This document shows positions 12,099 to 39,113 of a stretch of DNA of 54,176 nt, piece by piece; position 1 is the stretch's first letter; each line of letters opens with the position of its first letter. The stretch covers positions 1-54,176 of the IMG/VR virus record IMGVR_UViG_2563366830_000017. One strand, written 5' to 3'. The notes under the pieces are model-generated. The model worked only from the letters and a program-made list of their open reading frames with translations, was not told the origin of the DNA and did not search any database. A program made the translations under genes and the position numbers. Origin of the DNA: a virus. Its lineage: Duplodnaviria; Heunggongvirae; Uroviricota; Caudoviricetes.

Positions 12099-12796
12099 AA
12101 AACATCGCCGCACAGATGGTTAACTTTGACCGTGAGCAGATGCGCCGGATCGCCAACAACATGCCGGAACAGTACGACGAAAAGCCGCAGGTACAGCAGG
12201 TAGCGCGGATCATCAACGGTGTGTTCAGCCAGTTACTGGCAACTTTCCCGGCGAGCCTGGCTAACCGGGACCAGAACGAACTGAACGAAATCCGCCGCCA
12301 GTGGGTTCTGGCTTTCCGGGAAAACGGGATCACCACAATGGAACAGGTTAACGCAGGAATGCGCGTAGCCCGTCGGCAGAATCGACCATTCCTGCCATCA
12401 CCCGGGCAGTTTGTCGCCTGGTGCCGGGAAGAAGCATCCGTTACCGCCGGACTGCCAAACGCCAGCGAGCTGGTTGATATGGTTTACGAGTATTGCCGGA
12501 AGCGTGGCCTGTATCCGGACGCAGAGTCTTATCCATGGAAATCAAACGCGCACTACTGGTTGGTTACCAACCTGTACCAGAACATGCGGGCCAATGCGCT
12601 GACTGACGCGGAATTACGGCGTAAAGCTGCCGATGAGCTGACCTGTATGACCGCGCGAATTAACCGTGGTGAGGCGATACCTGAACCAGTAAAACAACTT
12701 CCTGTCATGGGCGGTAGGCCTCTAAATCGTGCACAGGCTCTGGCGAAGATCGCAGAAATCAAAGCGAAGTTCGGACTGAAAGGAGCAACTGTATGA
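12095..12796 (+). CDS. P: Replication protein P (DnaB helicase loader)
   Basis: 233-aa ORF MKNIAAQMVNFDREQMRRIANNMPEQYDEKPQVQQVA... matches lambda P. Confidence 0.97.
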   Translation: MKNIAAQMVNFDREQMRRIANNMPEQYDEKPQVQQVARIINGVFSQLLATFPASLANRDQNELNEIRRQWVLAFRENGITTMEQVNAGMRVARRQNRPFLPSPGQFVAWCREEASVTAGLPNASELVDMVYEYCRKRGLYPDAESYPWKSNAHYWLVTNLYQNMRANALTDAELRRKAADELTCMTARINRGEAIPEPVKQLPVMGGRPLNRAQALAKIAEIKAKFGLKGATV

Positions 12797-26753: not shown

Positions 26754-27029
26754 ATGTCGATGTACACAACCGCCCAGCTGCTGGCGGCAAATGAGCAGAA
26801 ATTTAAGTTTGATCCGCTGTTTCTGCGTCTCTTTTTCCGTGAGAGCTATCCCTTCACTACGGAGAAAGTCTATCTCTCACAAATTCCTGGACTGGTAAAC
26901 ATGGCGCTGTACGTTTCGCCGATTGTTTCCGGTGAGGTTATCCGTTCCCGTGGCGGCTCCACCTCTGAATTTACGCCGGGATATGTCAAACCCAAGCACT
27001 TAGCATGGCTTTCTGAGGCTTTCGTGTAG
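26754..27029 (+). pseudogene. E: Major capsid protein E, 5-prime fragment (82 lambda-like codons then 10 foreign codons and stop) created by insertion
   Basis: MSMYTTAQLLAANEQKFKFDPLFLRLFFRESYPFTT...GYVKPKH matches lambda E; then LAWLSEAFV-stop. Confidence 0.9.
26989..26998. repeat. Left copy of 10-bp direct repeat AACCCAAGCA at island junction
   Basis: Identical 10-mer at 38323..38332; lambda-like E sequence ends here. Confidence 0.75.
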
Positions 27030-27110
27030 TTGCTGGTTTTTACACTTAATCTTTTGATAATAAAGAATAAGTTTATCTGGCGCTTTCACTGAATTTTCCT
27101 CGTTATCTGT

Positions 27111-27146
27111 GTGTTGCAATCATCTCTGTATTGCAGCTTGTATTGC
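27111..27146 (+). repeat. Candidate integrase arm-type sites: three copies of TGT(A/G)TTGC(A) near left end
   Basis: GTGTTGCA, TGTATTGCA, TGTATTGC read in sequence; two more TGTATTGCA copies at 38227..38247. Confidence 0.45.
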
Positions 27147-27161
27147 TTTTTGGGGCTAAAA

Positions 27162-28397
27162 ATGGCTGGCGAGAACAAACTGAGCGACAAAGCGCTTAAA
27201 GGATATCTGGGGAAACCCAGAGAAAAGCAGATCACCATTGCTGATGGAAAGGGGCTTTCTATTCGTGTGAGTACTAAAGGGGCTGTGAGCTTTGTTTTCT
27301 TCTACAGGTTAGCAGGTGGCCGGGCTGCTCCGGTCTGGCTAACGTTGGGTAAATATCCTGATATGTCACTCAAACAGGCAAGGGAAAAGCGCGACGAGTG
27401 CCGTGGTTGGTTGGCTGACAAACGTGATCCGCGTATCCAGATTAAGATTCAGGCTGAAGAACGCTTAAAGCCGGTCACAGTGGAGGATGCACTAAATTAC
27501 TGGTATGAAAACTACTGTAAGGTGCGTCGTAAAACTCATGCTGTAACGCTTGGCAGATTTCGAAAGCATATCTTTCCCTATATCGGTCATTTGCCCGTAA
27601 ATGACACTCACCTATATGAATGGCTGGACTGTTTTGACCGAATTAAACGTAATGCACCAGTTATGGCGGCGTATGTTTTTTCTGACACTAAATTAGCTCT
27701 TCGTTTTTGTCGGGTACGCCAGTACGCGACGTGTGATGCTTTAAAGGATTTGCGCATGAGTGATGTGGGGCAGATTGCAGGTAAGCGGGATCGGGTTCTG
27801 GATGAAGCCGAACTCGGCCAGCTCTGGAAGGCAATTTTTGTCGAGCCTGATTTAAAACTAATGTCTGAATACACGCGAAAAATGTTTGTGCTTTGTACAG
27901 TATTTGGATGTCGAATGAGTGAAGCCCGATTATCAGAATGGAGCGAATGGGATCTCGAAAGTTGGGTTTGGACTGTGCCAAAAGATCACTCAAAAACTGG
28001 TGTTGAAATCGTCAGACCAGTACCTGAAATTCTACGACAGTGGGTAACGGATGTTCACGAAGAGACAAAACATACTGGTTATGTGCTGGGAAGTCTGCGA
28101 ATTAGAGAAAGCGTAAGCAAGATTGGGGGGAAAATCGGTAAACGTTTGGGCCATGAAAAACAATGGTCACTACACGACCTTAGAAGAACGCTATCTACTC
28201 ATCTAAGTGATCTCGGTGTTGAATTTTATGTAGTAGAACAACTGTTAGGCCATGCGCTACCTGGCGTGGCAGGTGTTTACAACCGGAGTAAGTTTATGGC
28301 TAAAAAACTGGATGCTCTGGAACTCTGGACTACATATCTCAATAGCATCGCAGCTGCTGATTCAAAAGTGACAATCCTCAAACAAAAGGCTGGTTAG
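27162..28397 (+). CDS. Tyrosine integrase, P4-type (island-encoded)
   Basis: 411 aa from ATG; C-terminal HxLRxT...HxxxxxxxxY-like catalytic region (HELR...HDLRRT...LGHA...VY); adjacent to left junction. Confidence 0.85.
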   Translation: MAGENKLSDKALKGYLGKPREKQITIADGKGLSIRVSTKGAVSFVFFYRLAGGRAAPVWLTLGKYPDMSLKQAREKRDECRGWLADKRDPRIQIKIQAEERLKPVTVEDALNYWYENYCKVRRKTHAVTLGRFRKHIFPYIGHLPVNDTHLYEWLDCFDRIKRNAPVMAAYVFSDTKLALRFCRVRQYATCDALKDLRMSDVGQIAGKRDRVLDEAELGQLWKAIFVEPDLKLMSEYTRKMFVLCTVFGCRMSEARLSEWSEWDLESWVWTVPKDHSKTGVEIVRPVPEILRQWVTDVHEETKHTGYVLGSLRIRESVSKIGGKIGKRLGHEKQWSLHDLRRTLSTHLSDLGVEFYVVEQLLGHALPGVAGVYNRSKFMAKKLDALELWTTYLNSIAAADSKVTILKQKAG

Positions 28398-28398
28398 C

Positions 28399-28629
28399 AT
28401 GAAAAAAATGGCAATTGTTGATAAAAAGGGTCTGGAGTACATTCCTAACATTGACCGAATGATCCGTGAGAAAGAATGTCGGGAGCTAACTACTCTTGCG
28501 AACAGCACACGCTGGAAGCTGGAGAAGGAAGGAAAATTTCCTAAGCGGATCAAGATTGGTTCCACTGCTGTTGCATATCGTCTTTCAGAAGTGCAGGCAT
28601 GGATTCGAGGTGAGTGGGAAACAACTTAA
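28399..28629 (+). CDS. AlpA-family HTH regulator/excisionase-like protein
   Basis: 76 aa; placed immediately after integrase as in P4-like and PICI elements. Confidence 0.7.
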   Translation: MKKMAIVDKKGLEYIPNIDRMIREKECRELTTLANSTRWKLEKEGKFPKRIKIGSTAVAYRLSEVQAWIRGEWETT

Positions 28630-28636
28630 CTATTAG

Positions 28637-29467
28637 GTGGGCATTGTGGCTATATTTCATTATACAGATCTTTTTGGTTTGAAAGGTATATTAGACTCTA
28701 ATTCTTTATGGGCTACAAACATATATTTCTTAAATGATAAAGAGGAGTCTAACCATGGATGTGAATGCTTTCGAAATACAATTAAAATAGTTGATGACAA
28801 TATCATTCCAAAAGATAAGAAAACTATTTTGCTCAAGTCTCTTGACATGTATGAGAAAGGGAGGTTACAAAAAGAAAAAGGGATTGATAAACATGTTTAT
28901 AGCATCTCTTTTTGTAAGGAAAACGATAAGTTAAGTCAGTGGAGAGGTTACGGAAATAAACAGGGTGTTTGCATTGAGTTTGATGCGGATGAACTTGTGA
29001 GCTTTTCTCAAAATATTTATTTAAATTGTGTTGCACATGATGTTATATATTCAAATAATAACGATATTACTAAGATGAGTAAGGAGTTGGGAGAGTTTTT
29101 TTCTTGTAATGGTATTAACATTAAAGAAATGAATGATCATTTTGTAACAATGGTCTCTACGTATCAATTTATATCTAAATACATCCCATTTTTTAAACAT
29201 CCTAGTTTTATCGAAGAGAATGAATTTAGATTGGTATTTACTCCGTGGATGCAAATGCCAGATGTGCACTTCAGAATAAATAATAATGGAATCATCCCTT
29301 ATATCATCATTGATAATAAAGATAATAGAAAGTTACCAATTAAAAGCATTACAATTGGCCCGACAAACGATTATGATTTCATTGAGGCTGGTATAAAAAT
29401 GTTCTTGGATTCAAGAGGATTTAGTTCTGTGGAAATTAAATCCTCATCAATTCCATTCAGGGGGTAA
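28637..29467 (+). CDS. DUF2971-like protein (AT-rich cargo gene)
   Basis: N-terminal FHYTDLFGLKGILDSNSLWATNIYFLNDKEE resembles the DUF2971 signature as I recall it; GTG start; low GC. Confidence 0.55.
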   Translation: MGIVAIFHYTDLFGLKGILDSNSLWATNIYFLNDKEESNHGCECFRNTIKIVDDNIIPKDKKTILLKSLDMYEKGRLQKEKGIDKHVYSISFCKENDKLSQWRGYGNKQGVCIEFDADELVSFSQNIYLNCVAHDVIYSNNNDITKMSKELGEFFSCNGINIKEMNDHFVTMVSTYQFISKYIPFFKHPSFIEENEFRLVFTPWMQMPDVHFRINNNGIIPYIIIDNKDNRKLPIKSITIGPTNDYDFIEAGIKMFLDSRGFSSVEIKSSSIPFRG

Positions 29468-29598: not shown

Positions 29599-29955
29599 TC
29601 AATATTTAGGTGGTTCAACAAGAGCGTTTATCATTGCTCTCAAATTATCGCGAACACTTATCCAAGTCTGTTCTGCTCGTTCTAACTCATCAGTGTACAA
29701 CTTTAATGTTTTATCTATGCCATATGTGGCTATTAAATTTATAGCTTCTTGTAATTTTTCAGGATTATTCCTTCTTGGGGGAGTGAATATACCACGGATT
29801 TTTCCGGTAATTAAAGCTTTACGGTGTCTACATAGAATACCTTTACTTCCTGCTGGACAATTACAAGTCATGATTAGCGAGCCAGAATCGTTTGATACAG
29901 TGACTATGTATACATCCAAACTACTGCTACTTGTTGCGAAGAATTCGTATTTCAT
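29599..29955 (-). CDS. SWIM-type zinc-finger protein (CxCx8CxH), AT-rich cargo gene
   Basis: Motif CNCPAGSKGILCRH seen in translation; convergent with DUF2971-like gene. Confidence 0.5.
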   Translation of the reverse strand: MKYEFFATSSSSLDVYIVTVSNDSGSLIMTCNCPAGSKGILCRHRKALITGKIRGIFTPPRRNNPEKLQEAINLIATYGIDKTLKLYTDELERAEQTWISVRDNLRAMINALVEPPKY

Positions 29956-34166: not shown

Positions 34167-34382
34167 ATATTGCCAATAAAAAAAGCCGGAAAAAATAAAT
34201 TTTCCGGCATGCTACATAAATCCCGACCAAAGGGAGTGAAGATATTAACACTAATTGTCCGCACTGAAGTTGTCACCCCAAAACTTTATACAACATTGCA
34301 CTCGGTTGCATGTGTTCGCATGACAAATATCGGTGATAGCATATATCCACAATTATTTTTAATGAATGCAAAGAGGATGCGT

Positions 34383-35423
34383 ATGGTTGATTTATATTCG
34401 CCTACTCAGCTTGTACAGGTAGTTAATGCTGTAGATGTACAAAAACAACTAAATGCGTTATTTACCAGTTTGTTTTTTACTCGCTCGGTAATGTTTGAAT
34501 CGCGCGATATTATTCTTGATACAATCGACGATCCAAATATCCCAATTGCAGCGTTTTGTTCTCCTATGGTGGGTAGTAAAGTTTCACGTGACGAAGGGTA
34601 CGAATCAAAAACAATTCGTCCAGGCTATATGAAGCCGAAAAGCAGCATTGATCCAAATAAGTTAGCTGTGCGCCCTGCTGGTGTGTCACCTGAGCAATAC
34701 AATGCTTTTGGGGCGCGTAATATTAAAGTTAAACAGGCGATTGTAAATCAGGCTAAAGCTATTCGTGCACGTATTGAATGGCTTGCTGTTCAGGCAATCA
34801 CAACGGGGAAAAATATCATTGAGGGCGATGGTATTGAACGTTATGAGCTGGACTGGAATATAAAACCACAAAATATCATCACTCAGTCTGGCGGTACTGA
34901 GTGGTCAGGTAAGGATAAAGAAACTTTTGATCCAAATGATGATATTGAGAGCTACGCAGAATTTAGTGAGGGCGTCACTAATATCATCATTATGGGTGGT
35001 AATGTATGGAAGAAATACCGTTCATTCAGAGCGATAAAAGAGGCTTTGGATACCCGTCGTGGTTCTAATTCCGAACTGGAAACGGCCCTTAAAGACCTTG
35101 GTGATTCGGTGAGTTTTAAAGGGTATATGGGCGATGTTGCGATTGTTGTTTACAGCGGGCGTTATACCGACGAGGACGGAACAGAAAAACATTTCCTTGA
35201 TCCTGATTTGATGGTGCTTGGCAATACGGCTCTTCAGGGGATTGTCGCCTATGGCGGTATTCAGGATCCGGAGCTAATCCGAATGGGGCTGACTAAAGCC
35301 GAACTTGCACCGAAAAACTATATTGTGCCTGGTGATCCGGCTATTGAATATGTGCAGACACATTCAGCACCACAGCCAATACCGGCCCGCATCAATCGTT
35401 TTGTTACCGTTCGCATTGGCTAA
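34383..35423 (+). CDS. Island-encoded major capsid protein, diverged homolog of lambda E
   Basis: Blocks shared with prophage E: NIITQSGGTEWSGKDKETFDPNDDIESYA, LDTRRGSNSELETALKDLG, YMGDVAIVVYSGRY, MVLGNT; ORF track 34170 start is upstream. Confidence 0.85.
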   Translation: MVDLYSPTQLVQVVNAVDVQKQLNALFTSLFFTRSVMFESRDIILDTIDDPNIPIAAFCSPMVGSKVSRDEGYESKTIRPGYMKPKSSIDPNKLAVRPAGVSPEQYNAFGARNIKVKQAIVNQAKAIRARIEWLAVQAITTGKNIIEGDGIERYELDWNIKPQNIITQSGGTEWSGKDKETFDPNDDIESYAEFSEGVTNIIIMGGNVWKKYRSFRAIKEALDTRRGSNSELETALKDLGDSVSFKGYMGDVAIVVYSGRYTDEDGTEKHFLDPDLMVLGNTALQGIVAYGGIQDPELIRMGLTKAELAPKNYIVPGDPAIEYVQTHSAPQPIPARINRFVTVRIG

Positions 35424-35432
35424 GGGGGAGCA

Positions 35433-35774
35433 ATGGCTACTCATTACACTGAACTCATGGCTGGCACTGAAGCACTGGTGACTACGCTGGGGATATTTTC
35501 AGCTAATAAAGGGGTAATTCCTGCATTTACGCCACTGATGCAGGAAGATGCAACAGGTGCACTGGTGGTATGGGATGGTTCGAGCGTAGGTAAAGCGGTT
35601 TATGTTTCCGCTGTACAAATCGACACCGCGAAAAAAACACAGGCTCAGGTCTATAAGACAGGTGTCTTAAATGTTGATGCTCTGAACTGGCCTGAGTCTG
35701 TTAAAGAACTGTCAGTAAAGATTGCAGCGTTTGTTGGCTCAGGTATTTCTGTTCAGCCGCTGGCTCGTGTGTAA
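35433..35774 (+). CDS. Island-encoded decoration protein, diverged homolog of lambda D
   Basis: THYTEL, FTPLMQEDATGALVVWDGSSVGKAV, YKTGVLNVDALNWPE, AAFVGSGISV align with prophage D motifs. Confidence 0.8.
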   Translation: MATHYTELMAGTEALVTTLGIFSANKGVIPAFTPLMQEDATGALVVWDGSSVGKAVYVSAVQIDTAKKTQAQVYKTGVLNVDALNWPESVKELSVKIAAFVGSGISVQPLARV

Positions 35775-35785
35775 AGGGGGATACA

Positions 35786-36169
35786 ATGCAGAATGATTAC
35801 AATGACCTTAAGCCAATTGCCGAAATGATGTACCCGAATCCAGCTGTAGAGGAATTAAAAGCTATCGCTGACAAAATGTGTTTAAGCGAGCGCCTTGTTG
35901 ATATGAATCAGGTGATGGAAATTACAACCCTGAGTCGTCGTACACTGCTAAACCTTGAGGCTAGTGGAGAGTTCCCGGAGCGTGTGCAGGTTACGGAAGG
36001 GCGTAAGGCCTGGTATTTAAGTGAAGTGATCGACTGGATAAATAATATTCCTCGCGCTTCTGAATATTGCCGCGTACCTGTCCCAAAAAAGCCAGATGCG
36101 GCGCTATGCCTCAAGATTGAGCGTGTACGCCGCAATGCACGGGATGGTCGCTATAAGCTGATTGGTTGA
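35786..36169 (+). CDS. HTH protein (AlpA/MerR-like C-terminal half) immediately upstream of island cos
   Basis: 127 aa; segment MNQVMEITTLSRRTLLNLEASGEFPERVQVTEGRKAWYLSEVIDWI looks like AlpA-type HTH. Confidence 0.55.
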   Translation: MQNDYNDLKPIAEMMYPNPAVEELKAIADKMCLSERLVDMNQVMEITTLSRRTLLNLEASGEFPERVQVTEGRKAWYLSEVIDWINNIPRASEYCRVPVPKKPDAALCLKIERVRRNARDGRYKLIG

Positions 36170-36194
36170 TGAAATTAGGGCCCGCTCTGGCTGG

Positions 36195-36400
36195 CGGGTC
36201 CTTTCCGGTGATCCAGAACGTTACGGGGCGTCAGGCGCGCAGATTCTTGCTATTTATGACAATTTTCTGCGATTTGCCGTTTCCGTTCTTCTTCCTTGTA
36301 ACTTATTGTTTTTACTAGAAATACCCTCTAAAAAGAAAGGAAATGACAGGTGCTGAAAACAGGCTTTTGGGTCTCCGTCATTTCCTTTCTCATTTTTATC
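36195..36400 (+). other. cos: Island cos-like site, same orientation as prophage cos
   Basis: GGGTCCTTTCCGGTGATCC...ACGTTACGGGGCG...CGCG...GCTATTTATGA...AAAAAGAAAGGAAATGACAGGTGCTGAAAAC aligns block-by-block with 20591..20800. Confidence 0.8.
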
Positions 36401-36652
36401 TAAAAGTAAGCATCGAGGCCACCCCAAATGCTTATAGAGGTTATTGTGTCACTATGCGTACTGTTCAGGATTTAAAGTAGCAAGACATCTAGTTGCTTGC
36501 AGTTTTGGCGAATGATGTGAGGTTCTCTATAACAGATAATGTAACAAGTTACTGATATATTCTGTTATGGTTGACTTTAAATTTTGTTGCTCCTTCAATG
36601 AATTATTGAGGGGTAAAAATTAGGCGTGATAAGAATCGATCACGCCTATTGT

Positions 36653-37969
36653 TTATCTTGAAGAAATTTTAGGCAGGCTTTTTAAAAATAAATCTTTATT
36701 TCTACTTGCATCAGTTAAAAGTGTTAGGAATATTTTATCTGTAGGAGTGCATGTGCTCTTGTTTAACAGTAATTCACCAAGTTTCTGTAATCGAGAGAAT
36801 TGCCCATCCTCTTGGATTCTGTGACGAAGTGTACTATCATTTTTAATAACATCAACAAATGCAGAAACCATATTAATATCAAAGTGTTCAAACATTTCCA
36901 ATATTAAAGGTGCAGCCCCATTTGAATAAAAATTCTTCCTTCCATACTGATAGCTGAAACCACGATGGCCAACATAAGTTTTTGTAATGGCTGAAACAAA
37001 TTCAACAATATTATCTTCAGGGACGAAACTCGAGAATGGTAATAATTGGGTTACGATTTTTTCCTCTTCTGACCAATTATCTAAAGACTCGGTGAGTTTA
37101 TTAATGAGAGGCTCAATAATAACTTTTCGGGATGCAGGGCTAATATACATCAGTCCATCTACCAATAGTATGAATTGTTGTGCCTTCTCTATCTTATTGT
37201 TGTTTCCTGAAACTAAATACTTGTCAAATTGTTGGCCGACTTTACGTCGGTCGTCTTTTGAAAGTAATGTCCATAAAATAGGTGCGCAAAATTCAATGTT
37301 GTTTCTGAGTTCACTTGATATATTGGATGAGCAGTATGTGCCAAAAAAACGAGAGGATAATTCACTGATATAAATTGCAGGTAGATCTGAAAAGGCTTGC
37401 TTAACTGCCAGACTATTTTTATTAAATGTTGCCGAATCCATTTCTGAAAGATATGTAGTTATATCTATGATGGCTGGTGGAAACTCTTTAGAAAGAACGT
37501 ATTTATTACAATCATTAATCAGGTTCACTACTTTGATTAAATCAGGGTCGCTACTTTGTGGATGTCCACCAAATAGATTCCTGGTTTCTCTAGCTTGTTG
37601 TAATAGTTTCTGACCTTCTCGATCGATAACTCCTATTTTAAATGCTCCATCTATTAAATCAAAGTCGCTCACATAATCCTGAAAATCTTCATACGTTTTA
37701 ATTTCTTTTTTTTGTTTACACTCTTTGTTGAATAGATCTAGGCTACGATGAATTATCTTTTGACGTAAATCATCAACTACAGCATTCCAGTAAGCAGTGA
37801 TGGCACTTCTATAACCTTTTACAGGAAGAACTCTTATTGCTTCTGAAATATATGGGCAGTCAACTACATCATGCCTCACAGTTGAGAGCGCAGTTTGTAA
37901 CAATGTAACTTCTGTAGAGTCTAGTGGAGTTGGCTGCACTAAATGAGAACTTATCTCTGTACCCTTCAT
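36653..37969 (-). CDS. Hypothetical 438-aa protein, AT-rich cargo gene between island cos and right junction
   Basis: Low GC; contains R-x5-H motif (RNLFGGH); no family confidently assigned. Confidence 0.6.
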   Translation of the reverse strand: MKGTEISSHLVQPTPLDSTEVTLLQTALSTVRHDVVDCPYISEAIRVLPVKGYRSAITAYWNAVVDDLRQKIIHRSLDLFNKECKQKKEIKTYEDFQDYVSDFDLIDGAFKIGVIDREGQKLLQQARETRNLFGGHPQSSDPDLIKVVNLINDCNKYVLSKEFPPAIIDITTYLSEMDSATFNKNSLAVKQAFSDLPAIYISELSSRFFGTYCSSNISSELRNNIEFCAPILWTLLSKDDRRKVGQQFDKYLVSGNNNKIEKAQQFILLVDGLMYISPASRKVIIEPLINKLTESLDNWSEEEKIVTQLLPFSSFVPEDNIVEFVSAITKTYVGHRGFSYQYGRKNFYSNGAAPLILEMFEHFDINMVSAFVDVIKNDSTLRHRIQEDGQFSRLQKLGELLLNKSTCTPTDKIFLTLLTDASRNKDLFLKSLPKISSR

Positions 37970-38322
37970 TTCAGGATTTTCCTATTCTTTTCCATTTTTC
38001 TACTCTATTGAATTTGAAAAAGATATCAAGTTCGTTCTTGCCAGTTTTAAGTGGAAAATTTGATGTTACCTTATTGAGATAAGGCAGTTCTCTATAACCT
38101 ATTGTTATTAATTATTTTTATTTTTTTCCAATTCAGATGTTTAGGGCTAAGAAGTTAAGTGAGAGTTCACAGCAAAACTGCTTCTAGTTCCTCACCGAGG
38201 AGCAAAAGGTTAAGACAGCGTACTTTGTATTGCACAATGTATTGCAGAACCTTCTTTCGAAAGCTACAACAATCAATTTTATATTGAAAATTCAATCATA
38301 TCCTTTCGATATTGACTCATAT

Positions 38323-38332
38323 AACCCAAGCA
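38323..38332. repeat. Right copy of 10-bp direct repeat AACCCAAGCA at island junction
   Basis: Identical to 26989..26998; lambda-like E sequence resumes here. Confidence 0.75.
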
Positions 38333-39113
38333 TGAAGTGAATCCGCAGATGACCCTGCGTCGCCTGCCGGATGAAGATCCGCAGAATCTGGCGGACCCGG
38401 CTTACCGTCGCCGTCGCATCATCATGCAGAACATGCGTGACGAAGAGCTGGCCATTGCCCAGGTGGAAGAGATGCAGGCAGTTTCTGCCGTGCTTAAGGG
38501 CAAATACACCATGACCGGTGAAGCCTTCGATCCGGTTGAGGTGGATATGGGCCGCAGTGCGGCCAACAACATCACGCAGTCCGGCGGCACGGTGTGGAGC
38601 AAGCGTGACAAGTCCACGTATGACCCGACCGACGATATCGAAGTCTACGCGCTGAACGCCAGCGGCGTGGTGAATATCATCGTGTTTGATCCGAAAGGCT
38701 GGGCGCTGTTCCGTTCCTTCAAGGCCGTCAGGGAGAAGCTGGATACCCGTCGCGGCTCTCATTCCGAGCTGGAGACAGCGGTAAAAGACCTGGGCAAAGC
38801 GGTGTCTTATAAGGGAATGTATGGCGATGTGGCCATCGTCGTGTATTCCGGACAGTACGTGGAAAACGGCGTCAAAAAGAACTTCCTGCCGGACAACACG
38901 ATGGTGCTGGGTAACACTCATGCACGCGGTCTGCGCACCTATGGCTGCATTCAGGATGCGGATGCATTGAGTGAGGGTATTAATGCGTCTCCCCGTTATC
39001 CGAAAAACTGGAAGACATCCGGCGATCCGGCGCGTGAGTTCACCATGATTCAGTCAGCACCGCTGATGCTGCTGGCTGACCCTGATGAGTTCGTTTCCGT
39101 ACAACTGGCGTAA
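38323..39113 (+). pseudogene. E: Major capsid protein E, 3-prime fragment (codons ~80-341)
   Basis: PKHEVNPQMTLRRLPDEDPQNLADPAYRRRRIIMQNM...EFVSVQLA matches lambda E C-terminal 260 aa. Confidence 0.9.

Follow-up and report, generated by a model that had tools for sequence, protein, structure and literature searches.

The DNA considered here (the window, 54,176 nucleotides in all) carries a lambdoid prophage in which the lambda-type major capsid gene, gene E, is split by an island of 11,334 bp. The 5′ fragment of gene E (MSMYTTAQLL...GYVKPKH) lies at 26754..26998 on the + strand, the same junction being annotated in RefSeq as an incomplete ‘major capsid protein’, and the 3′ part (…EVNPQMTLRRLPDED…; EVNPQMTLRRL...) follows at 38333..39113, also on the + strand. 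A head decoration gene is found upstream of the split gene, and in the matching stretch of a sister locus, L001, gene FI and tail genes are found downstream. Judging from the reading frame followed by eye across the reconstructed attB, precise excision would rejoin gene E in frame. A tRNA target was considered and rejected, since no tRNA gene is present in the window and the target is a protein-coding gene.

Within the island, int (27162..28397, + strand) encodes a tyrosine integrase (Int) with an N-terminal arm-type DNA-binding domain at residues ~7-93, and is followed by alpA (28399..28629, +), the product of which is recognized by a domain match as an AlpA/Vis-type helix-turn-helix protein, regulator or excisionase. 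Directly after alpA, a DUF2971 protein is encoded at 28637-29467 (+) and a SWIM zinc-finger protein at 29599-29955 (−), each a weak match to the PADLOC candidate systems PDC-S31 (E 1e-4) or PDC-S62 (E 5e-5); the pair is possibly defence cargo. The + strand further encodes a DUF4222 protein, a D5_N/P4-alpha-like primase (31422), an SSB, a lambda-E-like major capsid protein of the island itself (ORF 34170-35423, the start being likely at ~34383, as in the 346-aa annotation of L001), a gpD-like decoration protein (35433-35774) and, after the decoration gene, a second and longer AlpA-family protein of 127 aa (35786-36169; phrog_2790, E 1e-49). That a satellite with its own capsid gene should interrupt gene E of its helper has been described for the element 11capE (PMC10111431). 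An ORF of 438 aa on the − strand (36653-37969) and the small ORFs belong to no Pfam or PADLOC family; the cargo of the right end (36170-38220) differs between copies of the island, L001 having another gene there.

The order int-alpA ... primase and a size within the ~10-20 kb range are those of the helper-embedded PICIs (HE-PICIs) defined by Tommasini, Mageeney & Williams (2023, NAR Genom Bioinform 5:lqad036; PMC10111431), with Eco567.11capE as the type element, and the island is a HE-PICI of the 11capE type. The latter shares with it the doubled motif described below and its co-orientation, the gene E target and an ~11-kb int-alpA-pri island with its own capsid gene; no essential difference is seen, and the window holds another copy of that element type. 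For 11capE, the gene E target and the same 10-bp identity block were reported, and excision was shown experimentally (PMC10111431).

The identity block, AACCCAAGCA, is present on the + strand at 26989..26998 (attL core, crossover region) and at 38323..38332 (attR core). It tracks the synonymous variants of the K-P-K codons of the helper: in L001 it reads AGCCGAAGCA (1370-1379 and 12540-12549), in Kosakonia (L002) and Cedecea (L003) it is shorter (AGCCAAA/AACCAAA), and the local variant is in each case present in both junction copies. The part that these variants have in common, CCNAA(G/A)CA, is probably where crossover takes place. Two bp before the right core, TTGACTCAT (38312..38320, +) is a candidate core-type Int site. 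Midway between the left core and the repeats upstream of int, a match to the IHF consensus WATCARNNNNTTR lies on the − strand at 27047..27059; it is retained in Kosakonia and with one mismatch in Cedecea, with a window-wide count of such matches near chance, and it can be regarded as a putative bending site, inferred only from the match. A promoter scan returned a single sigma-70-like site, at 27039-27068, which is weak (9/12) and lies upstream of the repeats. A promoter made by the repeats themselves, with TTGCAG as the −35 element, was rejected by eye on account of a poor −10 and the absence of space for a ribosome-binding site (RBS).

The repeats of interest are copies of TGTATTGC, which direct reading and searching resolve into two tandem pairs, one per arm of the island, with 12 bp from start to start. 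On the left (P′) arm, the doubled motif TGTATTGCAgctTGTATTGCT (27127..27147) starts 133 bp from the core centre and is made of TGTATTGCA at 27127-27135 and TGTATTGCT at 27139-27147, its end being 15 nt from the int ATG (27162); on the right (P) arm, the doubled motif TGTATTGCAcaaTGTATTGCA (38226..38246), with TGTATTGCA at both 38226-38234 and 38238-38246, ends 82 bp before the core centre. A degenerate copy with one mismatch, TGTGTTGCA, is found at 27110-27118, 17 bp before the P′ pair. The left-arm copies occupy the stretch 112-149 bp in from the left core copy, and the right-arm copies the stretch 77-97 bp before the right one; all five are on the + strand, and the arm word differs from the core sequence. 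The initial annotation, which had described repeats of one orientation on both arms of the island, is borne out on this point. Its three left copies before int are likewise all present, the third being a weak, subclade-specific extra, and its two exact right copies exist, one base lower than the 38227..38247 given there. The functional unit is the two tandem pairs, i.e. four sites.

Exact TGTATTGCA occurs three times in the window (0.56 expected), every time in the arms, and four of the seven exact copies of TGTATTGC in the window are arm copies. The word TGTRTTGC is found 11 times, a number that no shuffle reached, as compared with 5.2 expected; at the shuffle rate, ~0.03 copies would be expected in 2 x 150 bp of arms, where five are observed, for which a post hoc Poisson estimate by hand arithmetic is of the order of 1e-10. 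The motif is real beyond chance, although the stronger evidence for this is its conservation. Copies with one mismatch are at chance level in the window as a whole (51 observed, 54.5 expected) and were for this reason rejected as further sites. The copy at 27110 is not significant alone, its sole support being positional conservation: in three HE-PICI subclades the position is kept as nnYGTTRCR, with the GTTRC core 17 bp upstream of the pair, while the portal-gene subclade has an exact third copy 42 bp downstream and the other HE-PICI subclades have no extra copy. On this basis, it may be a candidate weak third P′ arm site.

Of 5,426 complete E. coli genomes, 174 have this left junction together with int, and the right-end cargo of the island is shared by just 12 of these. 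A single-protein locus search of species genomes returned only three close relatives, suited to the alignment of right ends and not as an outgroup. When the right ends of the window, L001 (E. coli), L002 (Kosakonia) and L003 (Cedecea) are aligned, both right-arm 8-mers and their 12-bp spacing are invariant in all four within flanks that are barely alignable, and the only other conserved block of these diverged ends is the equally invariant TTGACTCAT by the core. When IMG/VR was scanned without bias for TGTATTGC-N4-TGTATTGC, ~10 distinct P′ contexts were recovered, together with many distinct P-arm contexts. In the former, 12-25 nt separate the pair from the start of int, or 50-65 nt if the pair is followed by a third exact copy. 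In the attP sites reconstructed for the HE-PICIs examined, which use several late-gene cores, the two pairs are 231-235 bp apart from motif start to motif start. The motif is found in every homologous element examined; its absence from the att regions of homologues had been named at the outset as one of the observations that would refute the arm-site reading.

Much of this was known. For the HE-PICIs, a doubled motif, tgTGTATTGCantgTGTATTGCa, has been reported on both sides of the attP centre, upstream at 81 ± 2 bp and downstream at 132 ± 2 bp (PMC10111431), distances with which the 82 and 133 bp of the copy in the window agree. Both the motif and its interpretation as a candidate set of arm sites were already published in 2023, the possible binders being given as the arm domain of Int, AlpA or an unknown protein; the motif was stated to be absent from other island types (PMC10111431). 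A literature search for an AlpA operator, a follow-up on the HE-PICI motif or a later paper on its binder found nothing. The motif itself being published, no new biology is claimed for it; what is new here is the finding of different doubled 8-10-mers, of the same period and at the same position upstream of int, outside the HE-PICI clade, and what is added is a comparative argument for the Int arm domain over AlpA, i.e. a cheap and testable answer as to the binder. The doubled motif is thereby seen to belong to a set of arm-site words that runs through the whole family.

The N-terminal domain (NTD) of the island integrase belongs to PF13356 (Arm-DNA-bind_3; Pfam, E 3.6e-19, residues 7-93), and a phmmer search with the N-terminal 120 residues matches 3JU0 (HAI7; E 3e-6) and 3JTZ/3RMP (HPI), which were deposited as arm-type binding domains. 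An AlphaFold2 model of Int (mean pLDDT 80, NTD 85-90) predicts for this part a helix (9-15), four strands (24-27, 32-36, 42-48 and 58-65) and a second helix (70-85). Full-length lambda Int is the top Foldseek match of the model, and the modelled NTD superposes on 3JTZ with a TMt of 0.87 (rmsd 1.5 Å) and on 3JU0 with a TMt of 0.78 (rmsd 1.6 Å); the HPI/HAI7 arm domains share fold and family with Int residues ~17-98 at ~30% identity. In the N-domains of Tn916 Int and lambda Int, the beta-sheet is the DNA-reading surface.

Integrases related to that of the island were found with other words in the place of TGTATTGC. An alignment search of viral contigs (A3) gave nearly only capE-type elements and a further search (A4) put the non-HE integrases first; the larger set comprises ~290 loci, which reduce to 90 unique Int-NTD/AlpA combinations. 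Six motif classes are found in this 90-combination set and a seventh comes from three extra look-ups; they were assigned on the basis of the P′ arm, and the far arm was covered for the HE class and those of TGTATCAC, TGYAGTCAGT and TGTATAAACA. The seven classes correspond one-to-one to seven signatures of the Int NTD beta-strands: (i) TGTATTGC, with ..RVS..G..SFVFFYR; (ii) TGTATCAC, with ..R[LV][LFS]..G..SW[IVM][FY][AS]YR; (iii) TGYAGTCAGT, with ..KVS..G..TWYFT[FY]R; (iv) TGTAGTCW, with ..KVT..G..TW[FV]FAYR; (v) TGTATAAACA, with ..K[VA][TS]..G..SWVFTYR; (vi) TGGAACAA, which repeats with an 11-bp period, with ..RIT..G..SWFFRYR; and (vii) GGGTACTC, with ..RVT..G..SW[TL]FKYR. The class-specific residues sit in the predicted strands b2 (32-36), b3 (42-48) and b4 (58-65). 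The seven classes are spread over related enterobacterial genera, those named being Klebsiella, Serratia, Yersinia and Rouxiella; most loci are unassigned IMG/VR contigs.

The two-arm layout recurs with these other words. In a Klebsiella PICI inserted at fis (L130; Int 51% identical), TATATCAC and TGTATCAC immediately precede int at an interval of 12 bp, and on the far arm, which adjoins fis, TGTATCAC occurs twice at the same interval; a Yersinia fis PICI has TGTAGTCT twice just upstream of int. In four further fis-type relatives with other words (L265, L280, L244 and L218), the pairs are 233-234 bp apart, which is the geometry of the HE-PICIs. In these four IMG/VR contigs, the P pair, a fis-derived core and the P′ pair are contiguous upstream of int (L265:2934-3190, L280:3200-3455, L244:4382-4640 and L218:4723-4980), and such attP-like junctions represent either tandem islands or assembled circular forms.

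Which of the two recurrent DNA-binding proteins the word follows can be judged by comparing elements in pairs. There is no pair of elements with different motifs in which the Int beta region is at least 80% identical, whereas 51 different-motif pairs have an AlpA core at least 90% identical and, conversely, 114 same-motif pairs have an AlpA helix region less than 50% identical. Thus L268 and L262, with TGGAACAA and TGTATAAACA, respectively, have AlpA proteins 96.8% identical and Int C-terminal domains (CTDs) 82% identical, while their Int NTDs are only 54% identical; L216 and L224, with TGTATCAC and TGTAGTCAGT, show corresponding values of 91, 79 and 58%. The opposite case is that of L001 compared with L049, L071, L020 and L092, all of which have TGTATTGC: here AlpA is 46-49%, the CTD 42-47% and the NTD 63-69% identical. 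Within a motif class, no part of Int is better conserved than the NTD, and between classes none has diverged further; in these comparisons, the motif class follows the NTD beta-sheet and not AlpA.

These observations, together with the arm-type NTD of Int and the conserved two-arm geometry, support the arm-site reading of the initial annotation, and we regard the copies of TGTATTGC as integrase arm-type sites with a probability of roughly 0.8. The co-variation has to be read with some caution, since simple linkage during module exchange would also produce it: the DNA encoding the NTD is ~30 bp from the P′ arm and, in the circle, ~250 bp from the P arm, so that co-inheritance contributes, and the independent events that decouple NTD and motif from the rest are few, roughly four.

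That the doubled motifs are instead sites for AlpA, acting as the recombination directionality factor (RDF) and/or as an activator of the int-alpA operon, is improbable, although it is the alternative that fares best. AlpA belongs to the excisionase family of DNA-binding proteins, nearly all of these elements encode it, just after int, and RDF sites are typically tandem direct repeats. RDF sites are, at the same time, usually confined to one arm, as are those of lambda Xis, and a word read by the RDF should follow the sequence of the RDF, while the TGTATTGC elements compared above keep one motif with AlpA proteins that are less than half identical. The putative recognition helix of AlpA varies widely within the TGTATTGC class (NSTRWKLEKEG, KSTRAFMEKKG, RRHRALLEKEG, ASTRHYMIKMG and QAGLYRAEKEG). 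On the other side, the 97%-identical AlpA proteins with TGGAACAA and TGTATAAACA are joined by a third word, GGGGTACTC, the AlpA of which is 87-88% identical to theirs, and the AlpA proteins of the TGTATCAC and TGYAGTCAGT classes are 91% identical; that a near-identical protein cannot read three unrelated words is a strong argument against AlpA. The second, longer AlpA-like protein is found in L125 and is missing from the motif-bearing HE-PICIs L127 and L129 and, therefore, is not a universal binder. AlpA is among the possible binders considered for the HE-PICIs (PMC10111431), but in the related PICI EcCICFT073 it activates PalpA and not Pint (PMC6092414).

Slightly less probable still is binding by some other factor, be it a nucleoid or bending protein of the host or a further regulator encoded by the island, for which the repeats would be an operator or an architectural element. 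A location just upstream of int would suit an operator and ‘some unknown DNA binding protein’ is allowed for in PMC10111431; however, one conserved host factor cannot read seven words, int and alpA are, among the called genes with a recognized DNA-binding domain, the only ones that recur in all loci examined, and the far arm has an identical pair, always equally distant from the core, for which a simple promoter operator would have no need. The doubled motif was rejected as an IHF site, there being no match to WATCARNNNNTTR, as is also stated in PMC10111431. That the repeats are a chance similarity or functionless remnants of a duplication would be compatible with the lone one-mismatch copy at 27110, but is refuted for the four core copies by conservation, given the excess of copies in the 300 bp of arms, the 8-mers invariant within diverged flanks in four right ends, a spacing and core distance constant across the HE-PICI subclades examined and the occurrence of the motif in each of the 492 HE-PICIs analysed in PMC10111431.

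If the arm-site reading is taken further, we lean, with distinctly less assurance than for the arm sites themselves, towards a modular arm-site code in the integrase family that includes the HE-PICI clade. In such a code, every one of ~7 and probably more variants of the NTD beta-sheet would recognize an 8-10-bp word of its own, the words being always arranged around the core in two tandem pairs separated by ~234 bp. The NTD and both arms would move together as a single cassette, without regard to the catalytic domain, core specificity or AlpA. The fis-type PICIs (L130, L216-L259) are a case in point: between the TGTATCAC and TGYAGTCAGT integrases, the C-terminal part of Int is 72-79% identical and the N-terminal beta region 38-50% identical, and this mosaic structure suggests exchange of an NTD-plus-arms cassette with a boundary inside int. 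A modular code, if true, would provide natural orthogonal arm/NTD pairs and would settle the question of the binder raised in 2023; the pairs found here are candidate orthogonal NTD/arm-site pairs for integrase design.

As integrase arm-type sites, the four copies of TGTATTGC would serve a heterobivalent tyrosine integrase of the P4/lambda type. In the excised circle, ~235 bp would separate the two pairs, and the 10-bp core would sit between them, at a distance of 82 bp from P and of 133 bp from P′. Each of four Int protomers would place its NTD beta-sheet domain on one arm site while its C-terminal domains engage and cleave the core, and the arms would fold back onto the core, probably with the help of bending proteins, to form an intasome able to insert the island into gene E of the helper and to remove it precisely. 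Int binding, the use of the sites in integration versus excision, bending and autoregulation are all inferred.

Lambda Int, with its P1, P2, P′1, P′2 and P′3 sites, is one comparison, the shared features being an integrase of the heterobivalent type and sites in direct repeat that lie well away from the core on either side, two on one arm and two or three in tandem on the other. The site sequence is, however, unrelated, the NTD of the island integrase is of the P4/DUF4102 type (PF13356), the int gene of the island faces inward with its 5′ end beside P′, and each arm of the island is a tight tandem pair, whereas in lambda Xis/Fis sites lie between P1 and P2. In lambda, four Int bridges are formed per reaction (PMC4880445).

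A further comparison is with KplE1 (CPS-53; IntS/TorI) and P4 (Int/Vis), which likewise have P4-like integrases with an arm-binding domain. These elements target tRNA genes, while the island targets a late gene of a prophage, and their modules have mapped RDF sites. The IntS arm sites share TAAA, unlike TGTATTGC, and were rejected as a template, as no recognition rule can be transferred from words without resemblance. In KplE1, the arm-type P′ sites of Int overlap the int promoter and mediate repression, int being repressed by Int and the RDF (PMC2951348); repression of int by P4 Int is attributed to Piazzolla (2006), as cited in the same paper. In the island, the P′ pair lies between the sole promoter-like site (27039-27068) and the int RBS, and by analogy Int bound to the P′ pair probably damps int transcription; such autoregulation is speculative because the promoter call is weak (9/12). 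In the integrated state, helper late transcription running through the 5′ fragment of gene E could also reach int, as proposed in PMC10111431.

Arm sites set the geometry of the intasome and its directionality, and in helper-embedded satellites the timing of excision decides when the helper capsid gene is restored. Anyone wishing to understand or engineer this switch must, therefore, first know which protein reads the doubled motif.

Two of the motif-bearing groups show additional features. In a Rouxiella element (L295:3870-4000), the annotated int start is preceded at ~107-130 nt by a GGGGTACTC-type pair, and one more copy lies at ~−46. This layout is unlike that of the other classes, and the start codon or the arrangement of the sites may differ in this element. 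In the TGTATAAACA class (L258-L293), TTATGC is repeated twice, 8 bp apart, before the doubled motif, and could be a site for another protein.
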